From: Planctomycetota bacterium
GTDB taxonomy: Bacteria; Planctomycetota; B15-G4
Assembly: GCA_038212275.1 (NCBI GenBank)
Contig: JBBQUR010000015.1
Location: 32,001-96,000 of the forward strand
Direction of reading: 5' to 3'
DNA length: 64,000 nucleotides
A model generated the notes under the pieces. That model saw only the letters and a program-made list of their open reading frames with translations, was not told the DNA's origin and made no database searches. Positions 9,419-41,829 of the stretch are shown here, piece by piece. The translations under genes and the position numbers were made by a program. Position 1 is the stretch's first letter. Each line of letters opens with the position of its first letter.

Positions 9419-11086
9419 TCACGGCAGGCCCGCGGCAGGGTAGGTCTCCTTGAGCGCCAGATAGATGGAGTCGGCCATCGCGTTGCTGACCGTCGTCTGT
9501 TGCGAGCCGATGTCCGCCAGCTCTGCATTCAAGGGCATCGGGAGAGCCACCGAAACAGCCTGGCCGTCCTGCGTGTGCGAAAGGTTGAGGGTGAACGCTG
9601 AAACCCAGCTGCCGCCATTGATCCGGATTTCCTTCGTGTTCGCGGGCCCGTTGTACCGGGCCATGATGACCATCCACGCATCCAGCGAGACGGGCGTCGT
9701 CACGGGGGCGAGGTCCGAGTCGGCCGTCGTCCCGTTGATGTAGGAAGGCAATCGGAACTTGGCGACGCCGCCTGAGTCGCCGCTCAACTCGATCTGAGGT
9801 GCACCAAGGCCGCCGAAAGCCCCGACGAGCGGCCAGTCACCCGCCTCGATGGAGGGCGGGGTCCTGACAAGAACCCAGAGAAACCCCTCGGAAGCCCCAT
9901 AGATGTTCGCAACGTTGTTACCCGCTGGGATGGTGTTGTCGAGCCGGTCGACATTCAGTCCCGTATCCCCGGCAGTCCTCTTGAGAGTCGACAGGCCACC
10001 GAGCAATCCCGTGTGCATCGGCTGCACACCGCCTACCGTCGGGTTGAAATCCCAGGAGAGATACCCGGCCTCCCGGTGCACGGAGTTTCCCGCGCTGGCC
10101 GTTCCAAACCAGATGAATGAGACGCGGACAGGGAAAGCCGGGAAGCCGATGGTGGGCAGGACGTAGACGGTCTCGTCGTGAGGAACGATGCTCGCCCCTG
10201 CCGCGAATCGCATCGTGAGGTCAAGCGCCGAAAGGTCGGCCGGGGCGACGTAGGTAAAGGCACTCACGAGTGGCGCACTCGGCCCCGTCCCGTTCGTCGT
10301 CGTCACGTCGACCGCACCCGCCGCGTGAGCACCGGTGATCCCGGTGATCGTGGTGGCACCCGTGATGAGAAGGGAAGTCAGGTTGACGCCGCCAACGGCC
10401 GCGGAAGTCAATCCGACGGTGCTGCCAACGAACACCGTGACCGAGGACCCTCCATCGACCGACCCGATGCTCGGAACGATCGCCAAGGGTGCGCCCGTGG
10501 AAGTCGGCGCCAGGATGTCCGCCAGCTGGATCGGGTCACTTGTCCCGCCGAGCTTCAGCTTGGCCTTGGTGGGCGCGTCGAGGACGCCCTCGCCGTCGGT
10601 CGTTCCGGTGAGCTTGAAGGCCGCCTTGAATTTCGCGGTGGCAGTGCCTGTCTTCTTGTTCGGCACGAGGCTCATCGTGATCTTGGCAGTCGCCACGACG
10701 AGCGTGGTCTCGATGTCCAGGCCGGCACCGACCGCGGCTTCCTCGAGCTTGCTCTCGATCCAGTCCTGGACTTGGATCGTGCCCTCGGGGCTCAGCTCTG
10801 CTGCAAGCTTCAGACTGAACACGTTCTTGCGGGTGTAGGTGCCCGAAGCGACGACCGTTCCGTCGAACTGCGCCTCCCACGTGGCGTTCGGCAACAGCGT
10901 CACCGTCGCTTCGTAGAGTGCCTCGTCCTTGACCTTGCCGATGCCCTTGGCCGTGCCCGAGGCCGTGGCCTTGAGGCTCATCACGTGGCAGGTCGTGTCA
11001 TCGAGGTCATAGGCCGGCTTGGAGGGTGCCCAGGCAATGGCGCAGAGAGTCGCGAGAAAGACGGCGCTGTACACGCGGGTGCTCAT
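9419..11086 (-). CDS. Secreted multidomain protein (beta-rich N-domain, IPT/TIG-like domain, LamG-like C-domain)
   Basis: Signal peptide; IPT-like PSIGSVDGG...GAVDVTTTNG..AFTY; C-terminal DAWMVIMARYNG..EIRING resembles LamG/concanavalin folds. Confidence 0.7.
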   Translation of the reverse strand: MSTRVYSAVFLATLCAIAWAPSKPAYDLDDTTCHVMSLKATASGTAKGIGKVKDEALYEATVTLLPNATWEAQFDGTVVASGTYTRKNVFSLKLAAELSPEGTIQVQDWIESKLEEAAVGAGLDIETTLVVATAKITMSLVPNKKTGTATAKFKAAFKLTGTTDGEGVLDAPTKAKLKLGGTSDPIQLADILAPTSTGAPLAIVPSIGSVDGGSSVTVFVGSTVGLTSAAVGGVNLTSLLITGATTITGITGAHAAGAVDVTTTNGTGPSAPLVSAFTYVAPADLSALDLTMRFAAGASIVPHDETVYVLPTIGFPAFPVRVSFIWFGTASAGNSVHREAGYLSWDFNPTVGGVQPMHTGLLGGLSTLKRTAGDTGLNVDRLDNTIPAGNNVANIYGASEGFLWVLVRTPPSIEAGDWPLVGAFGGLGAPQIELSGDSGGVAKFRLPSYINGTTADSDLAPVTTPVSLDAWMVIMARYNGPANTKEIRINGGSWVSAFTLNLSHTQDGQAVSVALPMPLNAELADIGSQQTTVSNAMADSIYLALKETYPAAGLP

Positions 11087-11428: not shown

Positions 11429-12391
11429 ATGCTTCACGCCCTTCGCCACGCCTTGCCGGCCGCCGCCTGCGCGCTGCTGCTCACCTCCGGCGCAACCGCC
11501 GGCAACCTCGTCGTCAACGGCAGCTTCGAGACCGGGCCGGTGGTCAACCAGTTCATCGACCTGCCCGCCGGTTCGACGGCGATCGCCGGCTGGACCGTGG
11601 GCGGCTTCCACATCGACTACGCCGCTTCGACAACGTGGAACGCGTCGGACGGCTCGCACAGCGTCGACCTCGATGGCAGCGTCGCGACCCAACCCCGCAA
11701 CGGCTCGATCTTCCAGTCCTTCGCGACGACGCCCGGCCAGCAGTACAAGGTCACGTTCGACCTGAGCGGCAACACCTCGGGCGCCCCGACCGTGAAGCAG
11801 CTCGAAGTGAGTGCGGGCAACGCCGTGCAGGTCTACTCCTGCGACATCGGCACGATCGTGGCCTACGTGCCGCCGCTGGTGATCGTCTACAAGCCGCAGA
11901 CCTTCCTGTTCACCGCGACCTCCACCATGTCGACGCTCACGTTCAAGAGCCTCACGCAGCTCGGCCCGGCGCTGCCCGGATATGGCGCGGTCATCGACAA
12001 CGTGTGCGTCGAGCCAGCCTCTCCCTGGACCGACCTCGGCTTCGCGCTCGCCGGCGTCGCCGGCCTGCCGCAGCTCGTTGGCACGGGTCCGCTGACTGCG
12101 GGCTCGTCCGGCTCGATCGTGCTGAGCCACGCCGCGCCATCAGCGCCCTCGCTGCTCTTCATCGCGCTCGCCGCGCACCCGACGCCATTCAAGTGCGGCA
12201 CGCTGCTGCCGGTGCCGTGGGTCTCCACCTTCGCGCTCGGCACGAGCCCGGCCGGCGGCATCCCGCTCGGATGGGCCGCGTGGCCCGCGGGCCTCTCGGG
12301 CCTCTCGCTCCACTTCCAGTACGCCGTGAAGGACAACGCCGGCATCTGCGGCGTCTCACTCAGCAACGCGGTGCGCGGCAACGTGCCGTGA
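11429..12391 (+). CDS. Secreted choice-of-anchor C (DUF642-like) protein with shared C-terminal domain
   Basis: Signal peptide; GNLVVNGSFE, IAGWTV, ASDGSHSVDLDG, YKVTFDLSGN, IDNV motifs. Confidence 0.85.
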   Translation: MLHALRHALPAAACALLLTSGATAGNLVVNGSFETGPVVNQFIDLPAGSTAIAGWTVGGFHIDYAASTTWNASDGSHSVDLDGSVATQPRNGSIFQSFATTPGQQYKVTFDLSGNTSGAPTVKQLEVSAGNAVQVYSCDIGTIVAYVPPLVIVYKPQTFLFTATSTMSTLTFKSLTQLGPALPGYGAVIDNVCVEPASPWTDLGFALAGVAGLPQLVGTGPLTAGSSGSIVLSHAAPSAPSLLFIALAAHPTPFKCGTLLPVPWVSTFALGTSPAGGIPLGWAAWPAGLSGLSLHFQYAVKDNAGICGVSLSNAVRGNVP

Positions 12392-12462
12392 GGCCGGCCG
12401 CGCCGCTGCTACGTCGCCCCACTCTGCCTCCCGTCCATCACTCGATCAGGGATCTGAGAACC

Positions 12463-13428
12463 ATGACCCGACTCATCTCCCGCGCGCTGACCTCCGCCGC
12501 CTGCGCGCTGCTTCTCGCCTCCGCCGCGTCCGCCGGCAATCTCCTCGTGAACGGCAGCTTCGAGAGCGGGCCGCCCGTGCCCGGCCTCTACGTGAATCTG
12601 CTGGAAGGCTCCACCGCCATCCCCGGCTGGACCGTGGGCGAGCACCAGATCGACTACGTCGGGCCGTCGGCGTGGAACGCCTCGCAGGGACAGTTCAATC
12701 TCGACCTCGACGGCAGCGTGGGCCAGCCGCGCAACGGGTCCATCTACCAGACCTTCGCGACGACGATCGGGCAGCAGTACGTCGTGAGCTTCGACCTGAG
12801 CGGCAACATCTGGGGCCTGCCGCTGGTGAAGCAGGTGGAGGTCAGCGCCGGCAATGCCGTGGAGGTGCACTCGTTCGACATCGGCGCGGTGGTGCCGTTC
12901 GTCACGCCGGGGACGCTGTCCTACACGCACGAGACCCTCGTGTTCGTCGCGGTGTCGACGAGCACGACGCTCACCTTCAAGAGCCTCACGCAGCTCAGCT
13001 CCACCGCGCCCGACCACGGCCCGGTGCTCGACAACGTCGTCGTCGAGGCCGGCACCGCCACGTGGACCGACATCGGATTCGCGCTCGCCGGCGTCGCGGG
13101 CAAGCCGCAGCTCGACGGTACGGGCTCGCTCGTCGCAGGTTCACCCGGTGCGCTCGTGCTGAGCCACGCGGCGCCATCAGCGCCCGCACTGCTCTTCATC
13201 GCGCTCGCCGCGCACCCGACGCCATTCAAGTGCGGCACGCTGCTGCCGGTGCCGTGGGTCGTCTCCTTCGCGCTCACCACGAGCCCGGCCGGCAGCCTCA
13301 CGCTTCCATGGGCCGCGTGGCCCGCAGGCCTCTCGGGCCTCGGCATCTACTACCAGGTCGCCGTGAAGGACAACGCCGGCATCTGCGGCGCATCACTCAG
13401 CAATGCGGTGCGCGGCAAGGTGCCATGA
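12463..13428 (+). CDS. Secreted choice-of-anchor C (DUF642-like) protein, tandem paralog, with shared C-terminal domain
   Basis: GNLLVNGSFE, IPGWTV, YVVSFDLSGN, GPVLDNV; 3' third nearly identical to the upstream gene. Confidence 0.85.
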   Translation: MTRLISRALTSAACALLLASAASAGNLLVNGSFESGPPVPGLYVNLLEGSTAIPGWTVGEHQIDYVGPSAWNASQGQFNLDLDGSVGQPRNGSIYQTFATTIGQQYVVSFDLSGNIWGLPLVKQVEVSAGNAVEVHSFDIGAVVPFVTPGTLSYTHETLVFVAVSTSTTLTFKSLTQLSSTAPDHGPVLDNVVVEAGTATWTDIGFALAGVAGKPQLDGTGSLVAGSPGALVLSHAAPSAPALLFIALAAHPTPFKCGTLLPVPWVVSFALTTSPAGSLTLPWAAWPAGLSGLGIYYQVAVKDNAGICGASLSNAVRGKVP

Positions 13429-13701
13429 GCCCCGCAAAGTGCTCCGCCCGCTGTGAGTGACGACCGCCCGCGAGAGGGGCGCAGGTCAAACAAGCGCCCC
13501 CCACCGTTCCGCAGCGCCCGCAGGGTGCCCTCCCTTCGGCCGTGAATGCCGGCCCGCCCGCGAAACGGCGCCACCTGGCAGCGGCAGGGCCGCAGCCGGA
13601 CCGCGCGCGGGCCGATCCGTCGATCCGGGCCCCTTCGGAGGGCGCTCCGGGCCGAGGGCGAGGTCAACTCGGGCGCTGGCCTCTGCTAGCCTGCGGCCGT
13701 G

Positions 13702-16599
13702 ATGCGCAAAGGGGCCATGATCGTTGCGGTGCTGCTGGTGATGGTGGCTGCCGCGCTCGTGTTTCTAGGCCGGCCGCAGGATGCGGCGAATGACGACGTG
13801 GCCGTGCTGGCGCCGGTTTGCAGCTCGGTTGTCGAAGCCGCGACCCACGCACCCGATCTCAAGAGCGATGACACGTCGCGGTCGGCGCAGCCGCTGCACG
13901 CGCCGTTCGTCGTCGCGTCGCGCGCGGTCGATGCGCTGAACGCGGTGACAAACGCAGGCTCCGCGCGCGCGACCGCCGACGGCGCCGCACCCGCCTCCGC
14001 GTGGCGCGGTGTCGTCGTCGATGCGGATGGCGCGCCGCTGGCCGGCGCGCGCGTCGGGCGACTGCCGGCGCAAATCACTTTCAACTTCATCGCCGGACCG
14101 AGCGCGACGAACCCGACGCTGTTTGCCGACGCGACGTGGACCGACACCGGCGCCGACGGCTCGTTCGAGCTGCCATGGGCGCGGCCCGACAAGGACAACA
14201 TGCGCTGGGATGTCGTGGTGATCGGCGCCGGCCACGTGCCGCGACTGGTCCAGTGCGAGGACGCGCTGCTCGAGGGCGGCGACCTCGGCACGCTGGCACT
14301 GAGGCGCGGCGCCACTCTCACGGCGCGCCTGCTCGAAGCCGATGACACGCCTGTCGTCGGCGCGACGGTGACCGCCTCGCTGGGTCCATTCGGCGTGCGA
14401 CCCTTCACCGGCGCCCCCCCGCCGCCGCTCGGCCTGAACGAAGCGCTGCTCCAGGTGCGCACGGGAGACGACGGGCGCTTCACGCTCGCCGGGCTGCCGG
14501 GCGCGGACGTGTCGCTGCACATCAAAGCGGTGGGGCACGAGGACCTCGAGCTGCCCGTGCAAACGCTGGCGGCCGAAGGGGCGCTCGATCTGGGCGACCT
14601 GCGCATGTCGCGCGGCGGCCGCGTCTCGGGGCGCGTGCTCGATGTGCTCGGCGCACCCATCGCCGGAGCCGAAGTGCGCGCCAGCATCTCGGGACTCGAG
14701 ACACTGAAACTGTTCGAGCACGGCGTCCACTACGAGCTGGCGTCGGCGCGGTCCGGGATCACCACCGGGATTGACCGGTACAGCCTGCACGAGGCAGCGG
14801 CCTGCGTGACGGCAACCGATGCGGACGGCCGCTTTACGATCGACGGCCTCGTCAAGCCGATGTGCGCGGTGATCGCCGTGGCGCCGGGATACGAGCCGGT
14901 AGCTGCGGGCGAGTTTCCCATCGGCACGAGCGGCATCGAGCTGCGCCTGCAGCGCCTCGGCATGCTGCACGTGCGCATCGTGGACGATGCGGACGGCTCG
15001 CCGCTGGAGGACGCGACGCTGTCTCTCGTGCGCCGCCTCGGCTCCGATGCCAACTCGGAGGACGATCTTGGTGAAGCGATCGTCGTCGAGCGCTCCGGTC
15101 CGGGAGAGTTCATCGCGCACGGCATCTGCGACACGTCCTTCCTCGCGCTCGTGCGGTCGCCGGCGCTCGGCCTCGCCTTCGTGCCGCTGGACGGCCTCCC
15201 GTTCGGCCAGCTCCCTGCCGAGGCCTCGGTCGTGGTGCGCGTGCCGCGTGCGGCCTCGATCGAGGGTCGCGTCGTCACGTCGGCGGGCGAGTCCGTGCCG
15301 AAGGCGCGCGTGACACTCGCGCCCGGTTCGTATGCACAGTGCTTCGGCAAAGTACGCGAGGTCATCCTGCCGGTGGACAGGGAGGGGCGCTTCGCCTCCG
15401 GGCCGCTCCCGGCGGGACGCTGGGTCTTGACCGCCTCCGCGAAAGGACTTCACGTCGAAGCGCTCGACCTCACCCTGGTGCCGGGGCAGTCGGAGAGCGA
15501 TGTGTCGCTGCGCCTCTGCCGCGAGGTCTCGCTGTCCGTGCTGCAGCTCGACGCGGCCGGGCAGCCGGTGGTCGGCGCGCAGTTGAACGTCGTGAATGCT
15601 GCACGCCCCGCGGGTGGTGCCGATGTCCTGGGCTGGCGGAGCACAGACGCCACGGGCCGCGCAGAGTTCAGCGTGCCGGCCGGCGCGCTGCGCCTCGAGC
15701 AACGCAAGCCGCCGCTCGTCGTGGAGCTCGGCGTCCTGGCGGAGGGCGAGCAGCGCGTGTTGACGCTTCAGCAGCCGCGCGCGGCGGTGCTGCAGGGCAC
15801 GGTGCGCGCCGCTGCGTCGCCGGTTGCGGGCGCGGTGGTCTCCTTCACGCACGCCATGGGCCTGGTGCACACGACGACCGACGGCGCCGGGCGTTACCGC
15901 CTCGAGATTCCCGGCGACATGAGCGGCCGGGTGCGCGCGGTGTCGCCGCGCGGCGGCTTCGCGGTGCGGCAACTCGACACGCCGGCCGGCGCGACGCTCG
16001 ACGTGGACCTGGATTTCGGCGACCTCGTCCTGCACGGCACGGTGATCGACGTCGTCACCGGCGAGGGCGTCGCCGGGCTGTCCTTCCTGGTGTCGGGCCC
16101 CTCCGACTCGCCCTTCGTGCCCTCGGTCAAGAGCGACGCCACCGGCCGCTTCACGCTGGAGCATTTCGATGCAGGCACGTGGACCATCGGCGTGCGCGGC
16201 GACGACATCACGACGACCGAGCCCGTGGCTGTCACGTTGCCCGCCGCGCAGGACCTCGTCGTGCGCGTCGTGCGCACCGGCTCGGTGAGCGGCGTCGTGC
16301 GCCAGGCGCAGGGCTTCCCGGCAGCGAGCTTCCACTCGGTCTACCTGCTGGGTGCGGACAGCGCCGAGAACGCGGACCTGAACTGGGCGGCGCCGGGCAG
16401 TGCCGCTGCGCCGGACGGCGCTTTCCGTTTCACGGGCGTCGCGCCCGGCGACTACGTGCTGTGTGTCACGCGCCCGATGCATCGGGGAGGTCCGGGCAGG
16501 GACGTGATCGAGGCGCTGGCCTGGACGCGCGCCACCGTGCACGTGTCGTCGGGCGCCGACACCCAACAGGATCTGGTGCTGCCCGCCGGCATGCCGTGA
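13702..16599 (+). CDS. Membrane-anchored protein with multiple carboxypeptidase-regulatory-like (prealbumin-fold) domains
   Basis: N-terminal TM; repeated G.V.D..G.P..GA.V...T.ADGRF units. Confidence 0.85.
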   Translation: MRKGAMIVAVLLVMVAAALVFLGRPQDAANDDVAVLAPVCSSVVEAATHAPDLKSDDTSRSAQPLHAPFVVASRAVDALNAVTNAGSARATADGAAPASAWRGVVVDADGAPLAGARVGRLPAQITFNFIAGPSATNPTLFADATWTDTGADGSFELPWARPDKDNMRWDVVVIGAGHVPRLVQCEDALLEGGDLGTLALRRGATLTARLLEADDTPVVGATVTASLGPFGVRPFTGAPPPPLGLNEALLQVRTGDDGRFTLAGLPGADVSLHIKAVGHEDLELPVQTLAAEGALDLGDLRMSRGGRVSGRVLDVLGAPIAGAEVRASISGLETLKLFEHGVHYELASARSGITTGIDRYSLHEAAACVTATDADGRFTIDGLVKPMCAVIAVAPGYEPVAAGEFPIGTSGIELRLQRLGMLHVRIVDDADGSPLEDATLSLVRRLGSDANSEDDLGEAIVVERSGPGEFIAHGICDTSFLALVRSPALGLAFVPLDGLPFGQLPAEASVVVRVPRAASIEGRVVTSAGESVPKARVTLAPGSYAQCFGKVREVILPVDREGRFASGPLPAGRWVLTASAKGLHVEALDLTLVPGQSESDVSLRLCREVSLSVLQLDAAGQPVVGAQLNVVNAARPAGGADVLGWRSTDATGRAEFSVPAGALRLEQRKPPLVVELGVLAEGEQRVLTLQQPRAAVLQGTVRAAASPVAGAVVSFTHAMGLVHTTTDGAGRYRLEIPGDMSGRVRAVSPRGGFAVRQLDTPAGATLDVDLDFGDLVLHGTVIDVVTGEGVAGLSFLVSGPSDSPFVPSVKSDATGRFTLEHFDAGTWTIGVRGDDITTTEPVAVTLPAAQDLVVRVVRTGSVSGVVRQAQGFPAASFHSVYLLGADSAENADLNWAAPGSAAAPDGAFRFTGVAPGDYVLCVTRPMHRGGPGRDVIEALAWTRATVHVSSGADTQQDLVLPAGMP

Positions 16600-16678
16600 C
16601 GCTGCGCGGTTTGCGCCGGTATGCCTGAGGCTGCGCGGTGTGCGTCGGCATGCCTGAGGCTGCGCGCGGTGCGCCGGC
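16591..16678. repeat. Three degenerate 29-30-bp tandem repeats (atgcctgaggctgcgcggtgtgcgtcggc) between convergent genes
   Basis: Units at 16591, 16621 and 16650. Confidence 0.75.
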
Positions 16679-16700
16679 TCAGCGCGCGCTCAAGGCCACT

Positions 16701-18026
16701 TCAGCGAGCCGCCAGCCACGCGCGCCACGCGGCGGCGAATGTCCTGTTGGAGTTCGGCGGCGCACTGTCGGGCCCGTCGGCGAAGTCCGGGCCGCCGCCG
16801 TACAGCCAGCGCAAGGCCTTGTCGAAGCCGGCAAGCTGCGCCTGCCTGGCGGGCGCCTGCTCATCCGCGGCGAACACATCGAGACACCGACCCACGAAGG
16901 GTTTCGCGCCGGCGGCGAGTCCCTGCATCAGCATCAGGGCGTCACTCGCATTCAGTCGCCGGCACTCATCAAAGGTGGGAGCAAGGTCGCGGCCCAGCTC
17001 CTCGAAGGCCTCGGCATCGAAGGCCGCCGTCCGCGTGCAGTCTTCCTCGTGATGCTCTCGCTCGCGATGCGCGGGAATGTGGACGGCGATCCAGCGCATC
17101 GAGGCAGCGTCATCGTCGCGGTAGACGGCGACGACCGCGAAGCCGGTGCACGGGTCGCCCCCGTTGAAGTTGACGGTCAGCAGGCGCGCGCGCTCCGCGC
17201 CGTCGAGGGCGCCGCGGCGCGCCAGTTCCGAGCGCGCGACCTCGGGCCCCACCGACTTCGGGAAGCGAGTCGTCAGCGCCGCCAGCAGCAGCGTGCCTTC
17301 CTCGACGTGCCCGGTGCGCAGCAGCAGCAGACCGTAGCGCGCGAAGAGCAGGTCCTCGCCGGCGATGCCGCCGCGCTCCGGCTCCGAGATCACCGAGGCG
17401 TCCAGGGCGGCCTCGTGCAGGAGCGCCAGCGCGCCGCCGAAATCTCCGCGCCGCTCCGCGAGCTCGGACTTGCGCTGGAAGACCACCACGGTGTTCTCCG
17501 CCGTGCACCAGATGCACGCATCGGCGCCCCAGGTGTCCACGTCGTCGAGAATGCGCTGCGCCTCGTCGAAGCGCCCGAGGAGGTCGAGCAGCACGTAGCG
17601 ATCCATCTGCGACGACACGCTCTGGGTGGCGCCGGTCTCCGGCAGGCCTTGGTCGCCGACACTTTCGAGCAGTTCCTGTGCGGCTGCCTGCAGCGCCGGC
17701 CACTGCGGCGCGGCGCGCGGATCACCGCCGAAGCGCTGCGGATACAGAGCGAGCCGCGCCGCGAGCACCGAGCCGGGATCAGGCGCACAGAATTTGCGGC
17801 TCGCGCCGAAGCACTCGCGCATCTGCACGAGCAGACCCTGGAGTTCGAGGAACTCCTGTTCGACGGCGCCGTCCGGGTTTGTCGCCGCAACGTGCGGGTC
17901 GCCTGCGGCCGAGGCGTCCTGCCCCTGAATCGCCTCGGTGGCTCCGCGCGGTGGGTCCTGTGCCAACGCAGCGCGCGAGCCGCAGACGAGCATCACCACC
18001 GCGAGGGCCCCGAGCGCCGGCTTCAT
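16701..18026 (-). CDS. Secreted helical-repeat (TPR-like) protein of unknown family with GADxCxxCTA motif
   Basis: Signal peptide MKPALGALAVVMLV; ATGA overlap with the upstream paralog; GADACIWCTAEN. Confidence 0.75.
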   Translation of the reverse strand: MKPALGALAVVMLVCGSRAALAQDPPRGATEAIQGQDASAAGDPHVAATNPDGAVEQEFLELQGLLVQMRECFGASRKFCAPDPGSVLAARLALYPQRFGGDPRAAPQWPALQAAAQELLESVGDQGLPETGATQSVSSQMDRYVLLDLLGRFDEAQRILDDVDTWGADACIWCTAENTVVVFQRKSELAERRGDFGGALALLHEAALDASVISEPERGGIAGEDLLFARYGLLLLRTGHVEEGTLLLAALTTRFPKSVGPEVARSELARRGALDGAERARLLTVNFNGGDPCTGFAVVAVYRDDDAASMRWIAVHIPAHREREHHEEDCTRTAAFDAEAFEELGRDLAPTFDECRRLNASDALMLMQGLAAGAKPFVGRCLDVFAADEQAPARQAQLAGFDKALRWLYGGGPDFADGPDSAPPNSNRTFAAAWRAWLAAR

Positions 18027-19273
18027 CGCGCCGCCAGCCATGCGCGCCACTCACCGGCGAACTGCGCACCGTCACCTTCGTTCAGCGAGCGAGACAGGCT
18101 CGGCCCGCCGCCATGCACCCAGCGCAGCACTGCGTCGATCGGACCGGTGGTCGCGAGGGAGGTCTCTCCGCCACTCACCTGCGCGAGGAGCGGCTCGACG
18201 TACGGCGCCGCACCACCGCGCAGGCCCTGCGCGAGCCGCAACGCGGGGCCGACCATCCACGGTCGCTGCTCGTTGCCGAGCAGATTCGTTTCGAGTGCCG
18301 GCCGGAGCTGCTCGAATCCTTCCGGGTCGAAGGTCGCGGTGTGCGAACCCCACTCGTCTCCGGTGTTGGGCAGGCGCGCTGCGAGGATCTGCAGCCAGCC
18401 GGGGCGGGCCGCGTCGGTCAGCACGAGGGCGGCGGTCATCCGGCAGTAACCGCCCCACTCGAGGATCACGACGTCGAGTGCGGGCTGCGCCTCGTCGACC
18501 GCCACGCCGCGCCGCGCGAGTTCGGCCTGCGCGAGCTCGGCACCGATGCTGCCTGGGTAGACGCGTACCACGAAACGGAGCACGCCCTCGCCCTCGGTGC
18601 CGTGGCCGGTGCTGCACAGCAGCAGGCCGTAGCGGGCGTGCATCAGGTGCGCGCTCGGATGCTGGCCGCCGCCGATCACGGCATCCGGCAACTCGAAGCA
18701 GGCCTCCTGCTGCCAGCGCAGCGCGCCCGCGAGGTCTCCGGCGCGCTCGCAGGCCTCCGAGCGGCGCTGATACACGACGAAGCCGTTGTCGGCGGTGCAG
18801 GTGTGGCAGCCGTCCGCGCCGAAGACGCGCACGTTCTCGAGGATCGCCTGCGCCTCATCCGCGCGACCGACAAGGTCGAGCAGTACGGAGCGGTCCATCT
18901 GGCGCGCCACGTCGTAGTCGCTGAGCGGCGCACGCGTGGCCGGGTTGTCGAGGCGGTCGAGGAGTGCCTGCGCCGCGGCGGCCAGCGCCGGCCACTGCGG
19001 CTCGAGCCGCGGATCGGTGCCGAAGCGCCACCGGAACACGGCGAGCCGCACGGCAATATCGGAGCACGGATTGGGCGCGCACCATTTGCGCGAACGCCCG
19101 AAGGACTCGGGGACCTGGGCGAGCAATGCCTGGAGTGCGCGCAACTCACGCGCGATGGCGGCATCGGCAACGGGCGCCGCCGGCGGCGCTGCGTCCTGTG
19201 CGGCGTGCGCGCTGATCGACAGCGCGGCCGCCGCCAGCACGACTCCACGAAGCCCGGTCATCAGAGTCATCAT
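18023..19273 (-). CDS. Secreted helical-repeat protein, paralog of 16701-18026
   Basis: Signal peptide ending in AHA; GADGCHTCTADN; same C-terminus WRAWLAAR. Confidence 0.75.
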   Translation of the reverse strand: MMTLMTGLRGVVLAAAALSISAHAAQDAAPPAAPVADAAIARELRALQALLAQVPESFGRSRKWCAPNPCSDIAVRLAVFRWRFGTDPRLEPQWPALAAAAQALLDRLDNPATRAPLSDYDVARQMDRSVLLDLVGRADEAQAILENVRVFGADGCHTCTADNGFVVYQRRSEACERAGDLAGALRWQQEACFELPDAVIGGGQHPSAHLMHARYGLLLCSTGHGTEGEGVLRFVVRVYPGSIGAELAQAELARRGVAVDEAQPALDVVILEWGGYCRMTAALVLTDAARPGWLQILAARLPNTGDEWGSHTATFDPEGFEQLRPALETNLLGNEQRPWMVGPALRLAQGLRGGAAPYVEPLLAQVSGGETSLATTGPIDAVLRWVHGGGPSLSRSLNEGDGAQFAGEWRAWLAAR

Positions 19274-19369
19274 TGCGGGTGCCCTTGCTGCGCCGCTGCG
19301 CGTGTTCCCGGAGTGCCCGGGCCAGGAAGTGCCCGCGGCCGGGCGGGAGGTTACCGGAGGCTCCCGTGT

Positions 19370-19470
19370 TCGCGCTGTCCAGCCACTCGTGCCACGCCTG
19401 CGCGAAGGCGTCGAACGCATCGAGGACTCGATCGCATGCGGGCCGCCCGCGCCGTAGGATCCGCAGGCCC
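19370..19470 (-). pseudogene. Relic C-terminus of a third CxxC/TPR-like paralog
   Basis: Reads LRI-/YGAGGP...FAQAWHEWL across frameshifts, matching LRWLYGGGP...FAAAWRAWL in the intact paralogs. Confidence 0.5.
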
Positions 19471-19530
19471 GGTGAAGTAGTGTTCCGCGATCGGCCGATC
19501 GCGCGGTCTGTGCGGCTCGGGGAAATCACC

Positions 19531-20220
19531 ATGCGTCACCGCTTCCTGCCGCCGCTGGGTCCGGCGCTCATGCTGGCCGCGCTGCTGCTCCCCGGTTGCA
19601 TCGGTCTGCGGACTTACGGCGAGGACCGCGTGCGCGACCTCTCCGACGTGATCGACGTGCGCTACGGCACGGGCTTTGGGCTCGGTGCCAGCGTGCAACT
19701 TGGCCCCGCGTTCTCGACCGGCCTCGGCTGCTCGCCGGAGTGGTACACGCGGGAGTGGTTCGGCCGGAAGTCGGTGGAGGTGGACGACGGCCTCTTCGCC
19801 GGCGGGCTCCTCGTCAGCTACGACGGCGACTATGTCCGGCGCAGAGGCGAGAGCGCCTGGGTGCGCAGGGGGGACTCGACGACCGGCTCCTTCAGCGTGC
19901 TCATCTTCACGATAAATACCGGCCGCGGCGGCCCCTTCGCCGGCGACGCCGCCTGGTTCGAAGAGCCCGCAGGCAGTCCGCCCCTCTTCACCGCCATGCG
20001 CATGGGCGGCACCGTCTACCTGCCCGGCGTGAACGGCGGCCTGTACTGGAACATCGGCGAGACACTCGACTTCTTCTGCGGCCTCGTCACCTACGATCCG
20101 ATGCACGACGACGGCTACCCCAAGTTCTTCACGCCCGGCGCACCTGCGCCCGTATTGGCGCCCGCATCGATCCCGGACTCGGCGTCGTTGTCGGACTCGG
20201 CCCCGCCGTCGTCGCCGTGA
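19531..20220 (+). CDS. Hypothetical lipoprotein
   Basis: Lipobox LPGC, then YGEDRVRDLSD; strong GC3 bias. Confidence 0.8.
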   Translation: MRHRFLPPLGPALMLAALLLPGCIGLRTYGEDRVRDLSDVIDVRYGTGFGLGASVQLGPAFSTGLGCSPEWYTREWFGRKSVEVDDGLFAGGLLVSYDGDYVRRRGESAWVRRGDSTTGSFSVLIFTINTGRGGPFAGDAAWFEEPAGSPPLFTAMRMGGTVYLPGVNGGLYWNIGETLDFFCGLVTYDPMHDDGYPKFFTPGAPAPVLAPASIPDSASLSDSAPPSSP

Positions 20221-20342
20221 GCGGCTGCGGCTGAGACGCGACCGCGTGCGTCGCGGCCAGTGGTTGCAACGGCCGTGCAGCGAATGCCTGAAAGGTTCAT
20301 CCCTTCGTCGGCGATCGCGCACGAGTGCTCTGAAGCCAGGCG

Positions 20343-20860
20343 ATGCGGTGCGCGCTCTCGCCTCTCGCGCGGACGCAGGAAGATCCGAAGGCCGCCGCAG
20401 ATCAGGTCGTGCACTGGATCGTCGAGCGCCAGAATGCGGACGGGAGTTACGCGCCGAGCTCGCCGACATGTGCCGCGTGCTCGACCTGCTCGGCCGCTGT
20501 CCGCGCCGCTACACGGAGCTCGACGGTCCGTTCTTCCGCCGCGCGGCGAAGCGCGTTGCCGAGGCGGCCGCTCGCACGGACGGCAAGCCCTCCACCGACG
20601 CGACGTCTGCCGCCATGTCCGGCGCGCCTCCCGACGCGCTCGGTCTCGCCGCGATGCTTTCGCCCGCTTTCCAGCAGCCGCGCGATGCCGCGCGCGCGCG
20701 CCTGCGCGCGCAGTCGCCCGACGGCGATTACGACCGATGGTTCGCGCTGCGCTCGTTCCCCGACGACACCGCCCCGCTGCCGACGGGCTCGGCCGCAACG
20801 GCTGCCGCACCGGCCATCGACTCGGCGCGCGCCGTCGTGATGCCGGTGCGGGCCGGGTAG
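20343..20860 (+). pseudogene. Possible frameshifted gene with a prenyltransferase/QW-like repeat
   Basis: WIVERQNADGSY in one frame; protein-like sequence continues in another frame (VLDLLGRCPRRYTELDGPF) after ~20455. Confidence 0.35.
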
Positions 20861-20871
20861 CATTGCAGCAG

Positions 20872-20906
20872 ATTCAGCATTCAGCGTTCAGCGTTCAGCA
20901 TTCAGC
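20872..20906. repeat. Heptamer tandem repeat (Rttcagc) x5
   Basis: attcagc attcagc gttcagc gttcagc attcagc. Confidence 0.85.
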
Positions 20907-20950
20907 GATCGGCCTTCGCCGGCCACTGGCGTCACACGCATCGGGACCTC

Positions 20951-22003
20951 ATGCCGAAACCCGCAACGACCCGCCGCCGCCGGCTCCACGTCCACGTTCC
21001 CGCTGGGCAGGGAAGCGTGGTGCTGCGCACCGATGCCGATTGGGAGCGCGACCTGCAGCCCGTCTCCGTTTCCGCGGACGGCAACACCTCGACCTTCCAG
21101 CTCGAGAGCCCGCGGCCGTTCGTGTACCTCAAGCCCTGCCTGAGGACCGCGACCGGCGCGTTGCGCTGGGCGGTCGGGCCCAACCTGCTCGCGCTCATGA
21201 CCTTCACCGCGGAAGCCCACGTCCACCCGTATTTCGACGGCAGCGAGAAGGGGTCGTTCTCGGAGCTGGTCGAGCTCGACAGCAGGATCCTCGGCCGCAA
21301 GCATCGGCTGCGCGTCTACCTGCCGCCGGGCTACCGCGAGAACCCGCTGCGAAAATACCCGGTGTTCTACATGCACGACGGCAAGAACCTGTTCTTCCCG
21401 GCTGAGGCCTTCATGGGCCGTGACTGGCAGGTCGACGACAGCCTGCAGATGCTCGACTCGATGAGCGCGATCGATCGCGTGCTGATCGTGGGTGTCCACT
21501 CCGGCGACCGCAACAGCGAGTACACGAAACCCGGATACGAAGCCTACGCCCGCTCGATCGTCGAGGAAGTGCGGCCCGTCGTTGCCGCGAAGCTGCGCGT
21601 GCACGACAGCCCCCGCGAGACCGGCGTGATCGGCTCGTCGCTCGGCGGTGTCGCCGCTTTCTACATGGCGTGGCAATACCCGCAGGTCTTCGGCTTTGCG
21701 GCCTGCATGTCGAGCACCTTCTCGTACCAGGACGACCTGATCGAGCGCGTGCTCTCCGAGCCCAGGTCCACGTCGAAGTTCTATCTCGACAGCGGCTGGC
21801 CGAACGACAACTACGAGGTCACGCTCGCGATGGCGATGGCGCTTTCCGAGCGTGGCTACAAGGTGCGCGAGGACTTCCTGCACCTTGCGTTCCCCGGCGA
21901 GCAGCATGACGAACGCGCCTGGAGCCGCCGGCTGCACCTGCCGTTCCAGCTCGCGATGGGCCGCCCCGTCGTCGGGCAGCGGCGCAGCAAGCGGAAAGCC
22001 TGA
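20951..22003 (+). CDS. Alpha/beta-hydrolase-fold putative esterase
   Basis: VYLPPGY..N..KYPVFYMHDG.NLF; GSSLGG elbow; FYLDSG; HDERAW. Confidence 0.9.
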   Translation: MPKPATTRRRRLHVHVPAGQGSVVLRTDADWERDLQPVSVSADGNTSTFQLESPRPFVYLKPCLRTATGALRWAVGPNLLALMTFTAEAHVHPYFDGSEKGSFSELVELDSRILGRKHRLRVYLPPGYRENPLRKYPVFYMHDGKNLFFPAEAFMGRDWQVDDSLQMLDSMSAIDRVLIVGVHSGDRNSEYTKPGYEAYARSIVEEVRPVVAAKLRVHDSPRETGVIGSSLGGVAAFYMAWQYPQVFGFAACMSSTFSYQDDLIERVLSEPRSTSKFYLDSGWPNDNYEVTLAMAMALSERGYKVREDFLHLAFPGEQHDERAWSRRLHLPFQLAMGRPVVGQRRSKRKA

Positions 22004-22123
22004 CGATGCCGCGGACTGACGTGACCCCCGCAAAGTGGTCCACGCGCTGTGAGAGACGACCGCCCCCGACAGGGCAAGGCGTCCCTCGTGAAGAAGCGCA
22101 CGCAGCCCGCGCGCCACCAGGCG

Positions 22124-23830
22124 CTACGGCTTCAGCGCGATCACCAGCGCATTGCTCAGGCCGATCGGCTCGCTGCCCGCATAGCCGGTGATGACGAACT
22201 GCGCGTAGAAGTTCGCCGGGCCGCCGCCGCCCGGGAAGCTCGGAATCAACAAGTTGCCTGTGGGCAACGGGGGGAAGGTGAGCAGCACCGAGCCCGCGAG
22301 CTTGGGCACGAGCGTGCCGCCCTTGAACGACGTGAGGCCAAGGCCCGCCGAGAGAAGCAGGAAAGGGTGGCCGCCGAATGGCACGCCGGTCAGCTCGAAG
22401 TCGGCCTTGCTGCCACTCTGGAGCTGGCCGCCGTAGACCGAGAAGGTCGCGAGGTGCGGGCCCTGGAAGCCGAGGTTGGCTTGATAGGTGAGCTGGCCGA
22501 TGCACTCCGCGCCGCCGGCGTTGCTCGCGATCGCATCGCCGTCGGGGAGGCCAACGAGCAGGTCGGGCCAGCCGTCGTCGTTCACGTCGAGGCCGCCGTC
22601 GAAGCTTGCGTGCTGGCTCACGCCGGAGCCGGTGAAGAAGTCGTGCTGCTTCACGAGGCTGCCGTCACCGCCGTCGAAGACGCGCACGAAGCCGCCGCCC
22701 GAGGGCACGCCCGCTTCCGTGCCGCCGATCGCCACGTCCGGAAGGCCGTCCTTGTCGATGTCGCCGGCCTTGCAGAGCCACGTGCCGAAGCGCTCGCCCG
22801 CGTTGACCCCGGGGTAGACGCGCACGAGGGTTCCCGCGGCGCCTTCGTAGAGGTATGCGGCGCCGACGCCGGAGCCGGATGCGCCGTCGCCCGGCGCGCC
22901 CACCAGGAGTTCGCGCACGCCGTCGCCGTCGGTGTCGCCCACGGCACAGAGGGCCGTGCCCAGGCTCTGGAAGTCCTGGCCGAACTCCTTGTAGAGCACG
23001 GCGTGCGTGCTGCCGTTGTAGACGGTCACGCTGCCCGCAGCCTCGTTGAAGATGAGGAACGGAAAGAGCTGCAGGAAGTCTTCCGCCGGCGCGCCGATCG
23101 CGTACTCGCTGCGGCCGTCGCCGGTGAGGTCTCCGAGCAGCGCCACCGACCAGCCGAAGAGGTCGCCGTCCTTCAGGCCCTCGTGGTGCATGAGGAGCGT
23201 GCCGGTTGCACCGTTGTAGAGGTTCGCGTAGCCCTCGTTGTTGGTCGTGCCGGTCTTGTCCCAGTGCGGCGCGCCGATGAGGATGTCCGGGATGCCGTCG
23301 CCGGTCACGTCGGCGTTGCTCGCGATCGAGTCGCCGAAGCGCGCGCTCGTCGAGCTGCCCTGAAACGTGCGCAGCACGGCGCCGGTCGAGCCGTTGTAGA
23401 GCGTGACGCGGCCGGCGTCCGTCAGGATCTGGAAGCCGGAGGGCACGTCGGCGCGCGGCGCGCTCACGAGCAGGTCGGGCACCGAATCCCCATTGATCAG
23501 CCCGGCCACGGCCACGACCTGTCCGTAGGTGCTGCCCGCGCTGTCCCCGTGAAACTGCTTGAGCAGGATGTGCGGCGCGCTGCCATTGATGAGGTACGCC
23601 GAGCCGTTGGAGGCATCCTGCGGCGCGCCGATGAACATCTCGGCGTGGCCGTCGCCGTTCACGTCGGGCACCAGCGCGACCGACTCGCCCCAGTGGTCGC
23701 CCGCGCTGACGAAGCCGCCGCCGAGGCCGTACCAGGTCTGGTCCTGCGCGGTGGCCGCGGGTGCTGCCGCCAGCAGGAGTTCGATCGCCGTGCAGCAAAG
23801 CAGAAACGCATGGGAGGCAGAGTTCTTCAT
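22124..23830 (-). CDS. Secreted FG-GAP/integrin-alpha repeat protein with shared C-terminal domain
   Basis: Signal peptide; about seven D.[NT]GDG..D...GAP repeats; C-terminal FKGGTLVP...YAQF...LSNAL..P. Confidence 0.9.
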   Translation of the reverse strand: MKNSASHAFLLCCTAIELLLAAAPAATAQDQTWYGLGGGFVSAGDHWGESVALVPDVNGDGHAEMFIGAPQDASNGSAYLINGSAPHILLKQFHGDSAGSTYGQVVAVAGLINGDSVPDLLVSAPRADVPSGFQILTDAGRVTLYNGSTGAVLRTFQGSSTSARFGDSIASNADVTGDGIPDILIGAPHWDKTGTTNNEGYANLYNGATGTLLMHHEGLKDGDLFGWSVALLGDLTGDGRSEYAIGAPAEDFLQLFPFLIFNEAAGSVTVYNGSTHAVLYKEFGQDFQSLGTALCAVGDTDGDGVRELLVGAPGDGASGSGVGAAYLYEGAAGTLVRVYPGVNAGERFGTWLCKAGDIDKDGLPDVAIGGTEAGVPSGGGFVRVFDGGDGSLVKQHDFFTGSGVSQHASFDGGLDVNDDGWPDLLVGLPDGDAIASNAGGAECIGQLTYQANLGFQGPHLATFSVYGGQLQSGSKADFELTGVPFGGHPFLLLSAGLGLTSFKGGTLVPKLAGSVLLTFPPLPTGNLLIPSFPGGGGPANFYAQFVITGYAGSEPIGLSNALVIALKP

Positions 23831-23989
23831 GGCTGGCGTCGACCAAGGGGAAGGAAGGGAAACCGGAAGCATCCGGCCTTCGACCCAGAGCCGGAATCCG
23901 CGCGGGCCGTTACACCGCTCCCCGCATCGGAGCGTCGGACCGGCGCCCGCACGGCACGGCCCCAGCAGCCGCCGCGTCCCGCCGCGCCT

Positions 23990-24044
23990 CGCACCGGCCC
24001 CGCACCAGCGCCGCACCAGCGCCGCACCGGCCCCGCACCGCAGC
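23990..24044. repeat. 11-bp tandem repeat (cgcaccRgcNc) x5 in a divergent promoter region
   Basis: Directly visible units. Confidence 0.7.
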
Positions 24045-24120
24045 AGCCTCCGACCGACGGGTCGCGTTCCCGGATAGAGTGCGTCGCGAAGCATCGTTCG
24101 GGCCATGGATCCAGCCAGTG

Positions 24121-25302
24121 ATGATCAAGCGCGTCCTTCCGACGTCCCTTCTGCCGCTCCTGCTCTGCGGCCTCGCGGCTCAGGTCCCTGCGCAGATCGC
24201 GGCGTGGCCCGCCGGCCCCGGCGTCGAGATCGGCCACGAGGGTCTGCCCGGCGGCCTGCCAGCGGCCTTCGAGAGCAGCGGCATCGCGTGGCATCCGGGG
24301 CGCAACAGCCTGCTGGTCGCGAGCGACTCGGGCCTGATCGCCGAGCTGCCGGCGGGCGGCGGCGCGCCGACGGTCTGGTCGCTGCCGGGCGACCTCGAAG
24401 GCCTCACGATCAAGGACCCGGCGAGCAACCTCGTCTACGTCGGCGTCGAGAGCCCCGACAGCATCGTGGAGTTCAACCTGGCGACGGGCTCGACCACGGG
24501 CAACTCGTGGAACCTCACCACGTGGATGACCGGCCCCAGCAACGAGGGCCTCGAGGCGCTCGCGTACGTGAACGGCGAGTTCTGGGCCGGGCTGCAACTC
24601 AACGGCAACATCTTCCGCTTCAAGCTGATGCCCGGCGGCGTGGTGCAGTTCCTCGGGAGCATGCCCAGTCACCTGGGGCGCGCGGATCTCGCGGGCCTCG
24701 AATGGGATCCGTGCACCGGCGTGGTCTACGCGCTGCACGACACGGCCAACGTCCTCGTGGAGTACGACAGCAACGGCACGTTCCTGCGCGAGTACGCCGC
24801 GACCGGCACCGACCAGGAGGGCGTCGCATTGCAGCACGGCTCGCCGACCGCCGCCGCGACGATCTGGTTCGCGCAGGACACGGGCGAGGTCACCCGCTAC
24901 GAGGGCTACCCCGTCACGCCGTGCCCGCCCGGGACGTGGACCGACCTCGGCGGTGGCACGACGGGCAGCGCCGGCGCGCCGCACCTTGCAGGCAGCGGGC
25001 CGCTGCAGGGCGGCTGGAGCTTCGCGCTCGACCTCGCGTCGGCGCCGCCCGGCGCGCCGATGCTCGCGGCGCTGTCGTTCGCGTCCAATCCCATCGCGGC
25101 GTTCGGCGGCACCTTCCACGCGCTGCCCATCGCGAGCCAGTTCATCCTCGCAGCCGACGGCGGCGGCGGATTTCATATCGCATCGACCTGGCCGGCCGGC
25201 GTGCCGTCCGGCACGACTTTCTGGTTCCAATTCATCGTGAAGGACACGGCGCACACGCCGCAGCTCACGCTGAGCAACGGCCTGCGCGCGACGGCGCCGT
25301 GA
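24121..25302 (+). CDS. Secreted SdiA-regulated/YjiK-like beta-propeller with shared C-terminal domain
   Basis: Signal peptide; blades FESSGIAW, GDLEGLT, NEGLEALAY, DLAGLEWD, DQEGVA; C-domain starts WTDLGG. Confidence 0.8.
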   Translation: MIKRVLPTSLLPLLLCGLAAQVPAQIAAWPAGPGVEIGHEGLPGGLPAAFESSGIAWHPGRNSLLVASDSGLIAELPAGGGAPTVWSLPGDLEGLTIKDPASNLVYVGVESPDSIVEFNLATGSTTGNSWNLTTWMTGPSNEGLEALAYVNGEFWAGLQLNGNIFRFKLMPGGVVQFLGSMPSHLGRADLAGLEWDPCTGVVYALHDTANVLVEYDSNGTFLREYAATGTDQEGVALQHGSPTAAATIWFAQDTGEVTRYEGYPVTPCPPGTWTDLGGGTTGSAGAPHLAGSGPLQGGWSFALDLASAPPGAPMLAALSFASNPIAAFGGTFHALPIASQFILAADGGGGFHIASTWPAGVPSGTTFWFQFIVKDTAHTPQLTLSNGLRATAP

Positions 25303-25562: not shown

Positions 25563-26500
25563 TGTCCAAACCGGGCACATGGGTGACAGAAACGTCCGGG
25601 CACATGGGTGACACATCAGGCTGTTCGGCAGGAGGGCCTGCCGATGCCGTAGTTGGAGTCACGTGTGGACGATCGATTGAAGTTCATGAAGGAGTACGGT
25701 TCTGGGCGCTGGCCGGTGGCCGAGCTCGCGCGCCGACACGGGATCAGCCGCAAGACGGCGCATGAGTTCATCGCTCGCTTCAAGGAGCGTGGCGCCGAGT
25801 GTCTGTGCGATCTGTCGCGAGCGCGGCATGCACAGGATCACCAGGTCACGCGACACGTCGAGCAACGGATCGTCGCGGCCGCACGCCAGTGGGGCTGTTG
25901 GGGGCAGCGCAAACTAGGCGCAATTCTCAAGCGCCGCGCGCCCGATATCGATTGGCCCGCGAAGAGCACGGTGGGAGACACCTTGAAGCGCCATGGGCTC
26001 GTGACGCCTCGGCATCTGCACCGGCCGACTGCGGCCTCATCCCGCACCCGGCTCGCGCCGGCCAGCGAGCCCAATGACCTGTGGTCGACCGACTTCTAAG
26101 GCTGGTGCCTGAGCGGCGCGCGCGAGCGCCTGGAGCCGTTCACGCTGGGCGACACCTGCAGTCGCTACGCCCTGGCGTGCACGCTCGTCAGCTCGATTCA
26201 CACGGAAACGGTGTGGCCGATCTTTGCGCATTGCTTCCGCGAGTACGGTCTGCCGCGGCGCATTCGCAGCGACAATGGGCCGCCTTTCGGCAGTGGCGGG
26301 CTTGCCGGCCTCTCGGGCCCGAGCGTGCGCTGGCTGCGCCTGGAATCCGCCCGGAGCGCATTCAGCCCGGCAAGCCGCAGCAAAACGGAGCGATCGAGCG
26401 CTTCAATCACGTGCGTCCACACGAGGCGCTCGGTGATCGCACGCCGGCGGAGGTGTACACGCCGTCACCGCGGCGCTTTCCCAGGAAGCTGCCGGAGTTT
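25563..26500 (+). mobile_element. Degenerate IS481-family insertion sequence (left end plus transposase pseudogene)
   Basis: Starts with TGT; 18-bp direct repeats ccgggcacatgggtgaca at 25571 and 25596; transposase from ATG 25644 (MP*LES.. with TAG at 25650), HTH GISRKTA, PNDLWSTDF* (TAA 26097), IRSDNGPPF, frameshift to PERIQPGKPQQNG..ER, RPHEALG.RTPA; no right end seen. Confidence 0.85.
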
Positions 26501-26509
26501 CATGACGGC

Positions 26510-30387: not shown

Positions 30388-30459
30388 GACCCGAACTCCC
30401 GCGCGAGAGACGGACGGAATCATGCCGCACGGGCCGCGCCCGTGTCAGGCCCGCCCCGC

Positions 30460-33453: not shown

Positions 33454-33744
33454 GCGTACACGTCGACCCCTCGGTGCCTGTCCGCCTCCGGCGCCAGCAC
33501 GTCTACACCGGAAGTCGCCCGGAGTAATGCTTTCGCGAGCGCGGGGCGCGTCGGCGGGCCCGCTGTCCGGCCCGAGCACGGTGACCACCATCCGGGCGGC
33601 GGGGTCCAGCGCAACACGCAGTCCGCTCCACAGCCCTCGCAGTGCAGCACGTCCGGCGCAGTTTTGTCATGCGGGCAAAGCTAGCAGGCCAGGCACCGGA
33701 CACTTGAGGGGCAAGCGCCTCATCCCGCGTAGAATCCGCCGCCT

Positions 33745-41828: not shown

Positions 41829-41829
41829 C

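Follow-up and report, generated by a model that had tools for sequence, protein, structure and literature searches.

We analyzed a stretch of 64,000 nucleotides from a Planctomycetota bacterium (assembly GCA_038212275.1, contig JBBQUR010000015.1, positions 32,001 to 96,000; here called the window), in which four genes for proteins with signal-peptide-like N termini (judged by eye) end in the same domain of about 120 residues, referred to below as the C-terminal domain (CTD). Gene A (11429-12391, plus strand) encodes a signal peptide, a choice-of-anchor C (DUF642) passenger, and a CTD at 12026-12388, and the database gene call for it (P0177) is the same protein of 320 amino acids. Gene B (12463-13428, plus strand; CTD at 13063-13425) is a tandem paralogue of gene A with the same layout. 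Both belong to the choice-of-anchor C family, as they score above the curated cut-off of 120 bits for TIGR04362 (132.9 bits for gene A and 140.2 bits for gene B), and the gene A passenger also matches PF04862 (E = 2e-17). Gene C (22124-23830, minus strand) carries a signal peptide, an FG-GAP propeller (E = 8.7e-38, seven stretches), and a divergent CTD at 22127-22486, which scores E = 1.7e-38 with a hidden Markov model (HMM) made from the four copies, the gene C copy itself being part of that model. In gene D (24121-25302, plus strand; CTD at 24937-25299), the signal peptide is followed by an SdiA-regulated/YjiK-like passenger (PF06977, E = 8.4e-6, 25.6 bits, cut-off 21), and the protein is 71% identical over 385 amino acids to database protein P0205, which carries PF06977.

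A first-pass annotation of the window had described four signal-peptide proteins with three passenger folds and one shared C-terminal domain, and both the translations and the Pfam and NCBIfam scans agree with this. It also had the coordinates of all four copies right. The three plus-strand copies (12026-12391, 13063-13428, and 24937-25302) consist of 121 codons and a stop codon each, whereas the gene C copy (22124-22486) is encoded on the minus strand by 120 codons, the first of them for Tyr rather than Trp. When the four copies are aligned, 18 columns are invariant, and the other three copies are 81, 41, and 27% identical to that of gene A. A fifth copy, which had been placed at about 55270-55430, is real (E = 3.9e-12) but consists of the C-terminal half only (55275-55436, minus strand, HMM positions 59 to 120, in an open frame of 90 amino acids). 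A six-frame hmmsearch of 53801-56400 did not find the N-terminal half, and the remnant is probably a pseudogene fragment.

Copies across the genome

The assembly that holds the window comprises 4.65 Mb in 40 contigs, is 91% complete, and has about 70% G+C. Its stop-to-stop open reading frames (ORFs) were searched at E <= 1e-3 with the four-copy HMM and then in three more rounds of iteration. The four-copy HMM matched 114 ORFs, so the sharing of this domain in the window is far beyond chance, and iteration raised the number to 143, or about one CTD gene per 32 kb of genome. The CTD ends within 5 residues of the stop codon in 126 of these ORFs, 6 to 15 residues before it in 8, 16 to 50 residues before it in 4, and more than 50 residues before it in 5. 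The dozens of mostly C-terminal matches that an HMM scan had been expected to give were thus obtained. The strictly C-terminal position that had been claimed does not hold, because in 5 of the 143 ORFs the CTD is N-terminal or internal. Two of these five copies are canonical: one (E = 6e-39) immediately follows the signal peptide of a metallo-beta-lactamase-fold protein, and the other (E = 8e-41) lies between a TSP_C-like domain (Pfam) and a C-terminal region of about 170 residues that, by eye, opens like choice-of-anchor C. Two divergent copies, opening with YGxGCSG, come directly after the signal peptides in two neighboring frames (1,301 and 1,771 residues; contig C4, 144061-155152, locus L019); both frames have Kelch, TIG, and GSDH-like domains, and the longer one also has malectin. 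The fifth is a weak match (E = 3e-4) near the N terminus of a 372-residue ORF. In an alignment of the 133 near-full-length copies, only Gln 98 is invariant, and G5, G10, G57, G77, P87, and D103 are conserved in at least 90% of the copies.

Distribution among bacteria

A profile search of 1.84 billion proteins gave 17,866 cluster representatives at E <= 1e-3, of which 7,624 remained at E <= 1e-10 and 916 at E <= 1e-30. Among the best 150 of the 17,866 clusters, the match ended within 5 residues of the protein end in 145, and the carriers are named in the database either as hypothetical proteins or after their passengers. The CTD was matched in 59 of 301 Planctomycetota genomes, which had been sampled evenly. 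All sampled genomes of the order to which the window's bacterium belongs are positive (families here numbered f1, 7 of 7; f2, 6 of 6; and f3, 2 of 2), as are all those of three other families (f7, 7 of 7; f14, 5 of 5; f21, 2 of 2), and several large families had no match among the genomes searched (f6 and f15, 0 of 15 each; f24 and f27, 0 of 10 each). The CTD family is therefore large and lineage restricted, and its distribution follows bacterial families. Copy counts in other genomes, for each of which no more than 150 candidates were scored, are 118, 85, 53, 35, and 19 in five genomes and 73, at least 149, and at least 150 in three more. A metagenome-assembled genome from Verrucomicrobia that shares a short word with the CTD has no copies.

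Family and fold of the domain

The comparisons with Pfam, NCBIfam, and PDB sequences that had been proposed did not match the CTD to a characterized domain. The four window copies gave no Pfam or NCBIfam match at E <= 1. When the 133 genome copies were scanned singly against Pfam, 16 unrelated families gave one match each (best E = 0.002), and the best match in a profile search of PDB sequences had an E value of only 0.31. Matches to dockerin type I (PF00404), to carbohydrate-binding module (CBM) families, and to Por_Secre_tail were absent from the Pfam results for the 133 copies; the NCBIfam scan covered the four window copies. In a full-text literature search, nothing on this domain appeared in the titles and abstract openings.

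AlphaFold2 prediction for the gene B CTD, made with the 133-row alignment, gave a confident all-beta model of 11 strands (pLDDT 97.7, pTM 0.90). Foldseek found no PDB chain at E <= 1e-3, with a query-normalized TM-score of at most 0.48. VIA-align was run against 48,161 chains and then against Foldseek's top 1,000; its best match was a macroglobulin (MG) domain of A2ML1 (Z = 8.8, root mean square deviation [rmsd] 3.0, 101 residues aligned), and other matches included an immunoglobulin (Ig) domain of LILRB4 (Z = 8.4, rmsd 2.6, 87 aligned) and a C5 chain (6h04, membrane attack complex; Z = 8.1, rmsd 2.7, 96 aligned). These MG and Ig neighbors share 12 to 16% sequence identity with the CTD, and the scores are at the level that the tool rates as a common arrangement (Z under or about 8 is background). 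The predicted fold is thus a generic Ig/macroglobulin-like beta-sandwich, and because the similarity is generic, function cannot be inferred from it. This fits the earlier statement that the copies have no transmembrane helix or basic tail and are unlike PEP-CTERM or LPXTG signals, as they end in a folded beta domain (...SNAxxxxxP); on inspection of the window copies no LPXTG-type tail was seen, and no sortase search was made. A CTD chain of the type IX secretion system (T9SS) was not among the matches listed by Foldseek and the two VIA-align searches, and the ESM Atlas matches were only unnamed Planctomycetota clusters. Weak Foldseek matches to ester-bond adhesin domains raised the idea of a Thr-Gln ester or isopeptide cross-link, which we rejected since the residue after the opening Trp is variable. 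A predicted CTD homodimer scored 0.02 against a mark of 0.42, which counts neither for nor against binding.

Passengers and export

Passengers were scanned against Pfam at E <= 1e-5 in 139 of the 143 ORFs, the four ORFs of less than 100 amino acids being left out, and 85 of the 139 had a match, the matches spanning about 30 mutually unrelated families of extracytoplasmic proteins. Of the CTD ORFs, 34 have FG-GAP types. Other passengers include phytase-like, Kelch, PD40, WD40, NHL, SGL, BNR/sortilin-like, and beta-helix proteins, and DUF642, GSDH, laminin B, CHRD, ice-binding-like, and TSP_C domains also occur. The hydrolases include sulfatase, phosphoesterase, alpha/beta hydrolase, and metallo-beta-lactamase families, the proteases include matrixin with TIG, reprolysin, and subtilase, and a nuclease-type passenger combines a lamin-tail domain (LTD) with endonuclease/exonuclease/phosphatase. 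Classical glycoside hydrolase families were absent from the matches of the 139 ORFs. Redox passengers include a di-haem cytochrome c peroxidase and an MtrC-like decahaem cytochrome. The MtrC of Shewanella is lipid anchored; the CTD cytochrome has a signal-peptide-like start without Cys, and by eye no lipobox was seen. Since no shared substrate of the passengers is apparent, a common ligand is more likely to be the cell itself. A crude signal-peptide rule was met by 104 of 137 CTD ORFs and by 789 of 1,833 control genes. CTD carriers are thus enriched, but this heuristic, which 43% of the controls pass, discriminates poorly.

One of the 143 carriers is polytopic. This protein, encoded on contig C20, has about 10 hydrophobic segments with a PMT_2 glycosyltransferase match, a soluble region, a Gly-Ala run of about 45 residues, and a CTD, and it cannot leave the inner membrane. 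The window itself encodes a PMT_2-type GT-C glycosyltransferase (5474-7669, minus strand) of the same layout as the C20 GT-C, ending in an F5/8 type C (discoidin) domain where the C20 protein ends in a CTD.

What replaces the domain on homologous proteins

A search with the gene A passenger alone (residues 22 to 200) gave 38 proteins, and the C termini of 22 of the more distant ones were read. The tail was of the PEP-CTERM type (a VPEP-like motif, a hydrophobic helix, and an Arg/Lys tail) in 16, a T9SS/FlgD_ig-like beta tail in 2, and another tail or none in 4; the Pfam PEP-CTERM family was matched by 6 of the 38 homologues. In hhalign comparisons, the CTD showed no relation to the two T9SS-like beta tails (probabilities of 0.2% and 1.1%). 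In 20 Planctomycetota genomes that do not carry the CTD, the only choice-of-anchor C match was a subthreshold one, to the sensor domain of a Ser/Thr kinase, and a swap test with that family is therefore impossible inside the phylum.

A comparison inside the phylum was provided by an operon of seven genes on one strand (contig C20, 38500-53700, locus L125). Its first gene, gene G, encodes a secreted CTD protein of about 625 to 640 amino acids without a Pfam match, and it is followed by genes for a TPR protein, a TonB-dependent receptor, a long ExbB-like protein, a second ExbB-like protein, an ORF of about 140 residues, and a TPR protein. Gene G thus lies two places upstream of the receptor gene, with a TPR gene between them. 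The receptor, with an N-terminal CarboxypepD_reg domain and a plug, is of the Oar type. Most or all of the operon genes are present in conserved order at 14 of 18 loci with a receptor orthologue, in 12 families (L125 to L142), and 17 of the 18 loci have a gene G orthologue, with a readable C terminus in 16. Six of these 16 end in a clear CTD (f1, f3, f21, and f35) and three in a divergent CTD (f7, f45, and f48; E = 1e-6 to 1e-7 in a search of 11 tails). Two end in a first Cys-containing module (f76 and f44), two in another Cys-containing module (f85 and f14), one in a further type of tail (f70), and two, both from genomes without the CTD, in an acidic tail of about 30 residues (f64 and f98). 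One of the acidic tails has a subthreshold Dockerin_1 match (E = 0.01, 16.4 bits, cut-off 22.9). The tails of gene G orthologues therefore differ by lineage: the same protein in the same operon has swapped small tails. Of the two Cys-containing types, one occurs once per genome and the other five times in genome G210. The module of f14 and f85 (about 115 amino acids; contig C39, 45007-45345 in G210) also matches inside four other G210 frames of 428 to 1,052 amino acids and may be a second, smaller shared module.

Search for machinery

SprA (TIGR04189) and C25 (PF01364) had no match in the 91% complete genome and were also silent in all 14 control genomes. The T9SS is not known outside Bacteroidota and their relatives. 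Exosortase (PF09721) was not found in the genome either, while a control genome matched. Across the 301 genomes, exosortase is present in 25 of 59 CTD carriers versus 108 of 242 noncarriers; it is neither linked nor antilinked to the CTD, and we rejected it as a complementary system.

The neighborhoods of CTD genes were scanned with a rough call of 2,922 genes, which misses 22 of the 143 CTD ORFs. Against a background of 13.6%, 11 of 33 Ser/Thr kinases and 7 of 18 extracytoplasmic function (ECF) sigma factors lie within two genes of a CTD gene. The enrichment is modest and limited to these two groups, which are regulators rather than machinery, and it hints that many CTD surface proteins are under ECF or kinase control.

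A Pfam scan covered 20 outer-membrane candidates that had been picked by a C-terminal aromatic residue. Among them are BamA, four proteins like porin O/P, an AsmA-like giant, and one TonB-dependent receptor, and several others match no family. In a panel of 42 genomes (21 CTD carriers and 21 noncarriers), three possible partners were rejected. The unnamed outer-membrane protein L113 occurs in four genomes, two of them without the CTD, and the unnamed L117 occurs in five and does not track the CTD. The GT-C part of the GT-C-CTD fusion is found in two genomes and is missing even from relatives of the same family, so the fusion is sporadic.

The receptor of the gene G operon is the only co-occurring gene that we found. 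At E <= 1e-50, 34 of the 301 genomes have it, and these comprise 26 of the 59 carriers and 8 of the 242 noncarriers, or 13 of 19 carrier families versus 5 of about 79 others, counts that were made without a species tree and from families that are not independent. None of the six f2 genomes, each with 119 to 328 first-look CTD candidates, gave a match to it, and it is present in five CTD-free families; the receptor is therefore neither necessary nor sufficient for the CTD. The association may be explained by shared ancestry, and we consider the receptor a lead rather than a partner. In Myxococcus, an Oar-type receptor exports a protease. Among the genes and genomes searched, no translocon, protease, or sortase was found that tracks the CTD. 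The first-pass annotation had spoken of a sorting or anchoring system; with no tracking machinery among the candidates searched, this still consists of one domain.

Other features of the window

Three frames of 925 to 1,068 codons (13690-16596, plus strand; 27670-30444 and 30463-33666, minus strand) encode repeated CarboxypepD_reg/transthyretin-like domains, without a CTD and without a barrel domain. Directly upstream of gene A and divergent from it, 9419-11086 (minus strand) encodes a protein of 555 amino acids with a signal-peptide-like start and no Pfam match at E <= 1. The frame at 26100-27212 (plus strand) joins a fragment of an rve integrase core to C-terminal sulfatase pieces; a mobile element may have disrupted a sulfatase gene here. 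A cluster at 35386-53808 encodes LolA-like, MMPL transporter, DUF3261, acyltransferase, and GT2 proteins, two ketoacyl synthases, a Trp-halogenase-like flavoprotein, and an O-methyltransferase, and it presumably resembles an aryl-polyene-type lipid pathway.

Discussion

The window led to a domain that occurs in 143 copies in one planctomycete genome, is almost always terminal, sits on extracytoplasmic and mutually unrelated passengers, and has no homology to a named family. On homologous or orthologous passengers it fills the slot of PEP-CTERM, T9SS-like, or dockerin-like tails. We consider three points well supported: the domain is a single autonomous unit, it is a tag common to extracytoplasmic proteins, and it stands in a slot used elsewhere by sorting and anchoring tails. 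That it is a localization tag of some kind is, in our view, quite probable. How it would act is harder to say, and our preference is a tentative one, namely, that the CTD is a docking module that keeps exported proteins at the cell envelope. The localizing role, binding rather than recognition by a translocon, and the identity of the ligand are what we infer. The CTD would be a self-folding Ig/macroglobulin-like sandwich of about 120 residues used as a common tag on Sec-exported proteins in this planctomycete lineage. After export across the inner membrane, it would bind noncovalently to a lineage-specific component of the envelope, which could be a glycan of the outer membrane or cell surface or else a protein of the envelope. 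In this way the cell would retain its enzymes, propeller adhesins, proteases, nucleases, and surface cytochrome rather than lose them.

The first-pass annotation had left the choice between a secretion signal and a cell-surface docking signal. The scale of the family, its position, and the slot that it occupies support a signal of that kind, and the nonterminal and inner-membrane copies fit docking better than an obligate export signal. We prefer docking to a translocation signal because canonical copies are found at the N terminus and internally, because one copy is tethered to an inner-membrane enzyme, because an acidic tail with a subthreshold dockerin match replaces the CTD in a genome that does not carry it, and because the passengers have no shared substrate. 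Several observations weigh against docking. The final residue is Pro in 82 of 118 full-length terminal copies, after the conserved S-N-A-L-x4, and this looks like a recognized C terminus. The linkers in front of the CTD are short, with P, T, and A just ahead of the opening Trp, unlike the long flexible linkers of dockerins and CBMs. The PEP-CTERM and T9SS-like tails that replace the CTD are processing or sorting signals and not simple binding modules, and a known binding-module family was not among the fold matches, of which the best had a Z score of 8.8. The five nonterminal copies could be evolutionary accidents, the signal-peptide rule separates carriers poorly from controls, and no ligand or partner of the CTD was identified among the candidates searched.

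The CTD might instead be an export signal that is required for crossing the outer membrane, is recognized in the periplasm by an undiscovered outer-membrane translocon, in the manner of the T9SS, and is then perhaps cleaved or used for covalent attachment. The terminal position of 126 of 143 copies and the Pro after SNAL would fit such recognition, the copy number (143 here and at least 149 and at least 150 in two relatives) resembles that of T9SS cargo, and homologous passengers bear T9SS-like or PEP-CTERM signals. The co-occurrence of an Oar-type receptor operon containing a CTD protein (26 of 59 versus 8 of 242 genomes) points in the same direction. However, the N-terminal, internal, and inner-membrane copies have stayed full length and high scoring, the receptor operon was not found in the CTD-rich sister family f2 (six genomes) and is present in five CTD-free families, and the profile comparisons with the two T9SS-like tails reached only 0.2% and 1.1%. 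We therefore regard an export signal as less probable than docking, although it is the strongest competitor. A more far-reaching proposal is that Planctomycetota of several families run their own sorting system, in which the CTD sends more than 100 Sec-exported proteins per cell to the outer surface via an undiscovered translocon or attachment machinery; the Oar-type receptor operon with ExbB/ExbD and TPR proteins would then be the first candidate component. We consider this rather unlikely.

The passenger spectrum and the lineage restriction fit poorly with two other explanations, in which the CTD would have no address on the cell. One is that it is an undescribed carbohydrate- or polymer-binding module that aims its passengers at an external substrate. 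A small beta-sandwich at the chain end would suit this role, fold neighbors include the N-terminal sandwich domains of dextranases and of the pectate lyase PelI (Z = 7.1 to 7.7), and in the GT-C of the window, an F5/8 type C lectin domain stands where the other GT-C has the CTD. These fold matches are at the background level of the tool, though, and cytochromes, proteases, nucleases, sulfatases, and nonenzymatic propellers have no common substrate; with no classical glycoside hydrolase family in 139 ORFs and no CBM match in 133 copies, external binding seems improbable to us. The compactness and confidence of the predicted model, the conserved terminal Pro, the short linkers, and a partner that was not found would all agree with a structural cap that stabilizes or protects the C terminus, for example against periplasmic tail-specific proteases, or with a spacer. 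Yet this does not readily explain why one and the same cap would be required by about 30 unrelated folds in about a fifth of the sampled Planctomycetota genomes, why sorting signals replace it on homologues, or why it can stand at the N terminus, and a cap is the explanation to which we give the least weight.

As a docking module or otherwise, the CTD bears on the question of how proteins come to lie on the unusual planctomycete envelope or outside it. Naming it would flag thousands of probable surface proteins in planctomycetes of soil, sludge, and sediment, among them adhesins, sulfatases, proteases, nucleases, and a cytochrome that exports electrons. A dedicated machinery, should there be one, would amount to a new bacterial pathway for sorting or secretion, and if the CTD is a docking module, it would offer a ready-made handle for surface display in this phylum.

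A shared C-terminal sorting or anchoring tag is a known kind of element; this particular family is absent from Pfam and NCBIfam as searched and has no relative among PDB sequences. Its best fold matches are macroglobulin- and Ig-like domains. Like the CTDs of the T9SS (type A, TIGR04183/PF18962 Por_Secre_tail, and type B, TIGR04131), it is a small all-beta domain at the extreme C terminus of many unrelated signal-peptide proteins, with tens to hundreds of copies per genome and a lineage-restricted distribution. It differs from them in that it has no sequence or profile similarity to them, is longer (120 residues and 11 strands), and in some copies is N-terminal, internal, or on an inner-membrane protein. 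On homologous passengers of the choice-of-anchor C family, PEP-CTERM-type tails take its place (16 of the 22 read), but PEP-CTERM is a short motif with a transmembrane helix and a basic tail, whereas the planctomycete CTD is a soluble folded domain without a transmembrane helix. The CTD has no homology to dockerin, lacks its calcium-binding repeats, and has short linkers. Nevertheless, its occurrence on many unrelated secreted proteins, mostly at the C terminus and tolerated elsewhere, is like that of dockerin-cohesin, SLH, GW, and choline-binding modules. The dockerin, SLH, GW, and choline-binding modules keep their proteins associated with the cell, and this is the role that we propose for the CTD.

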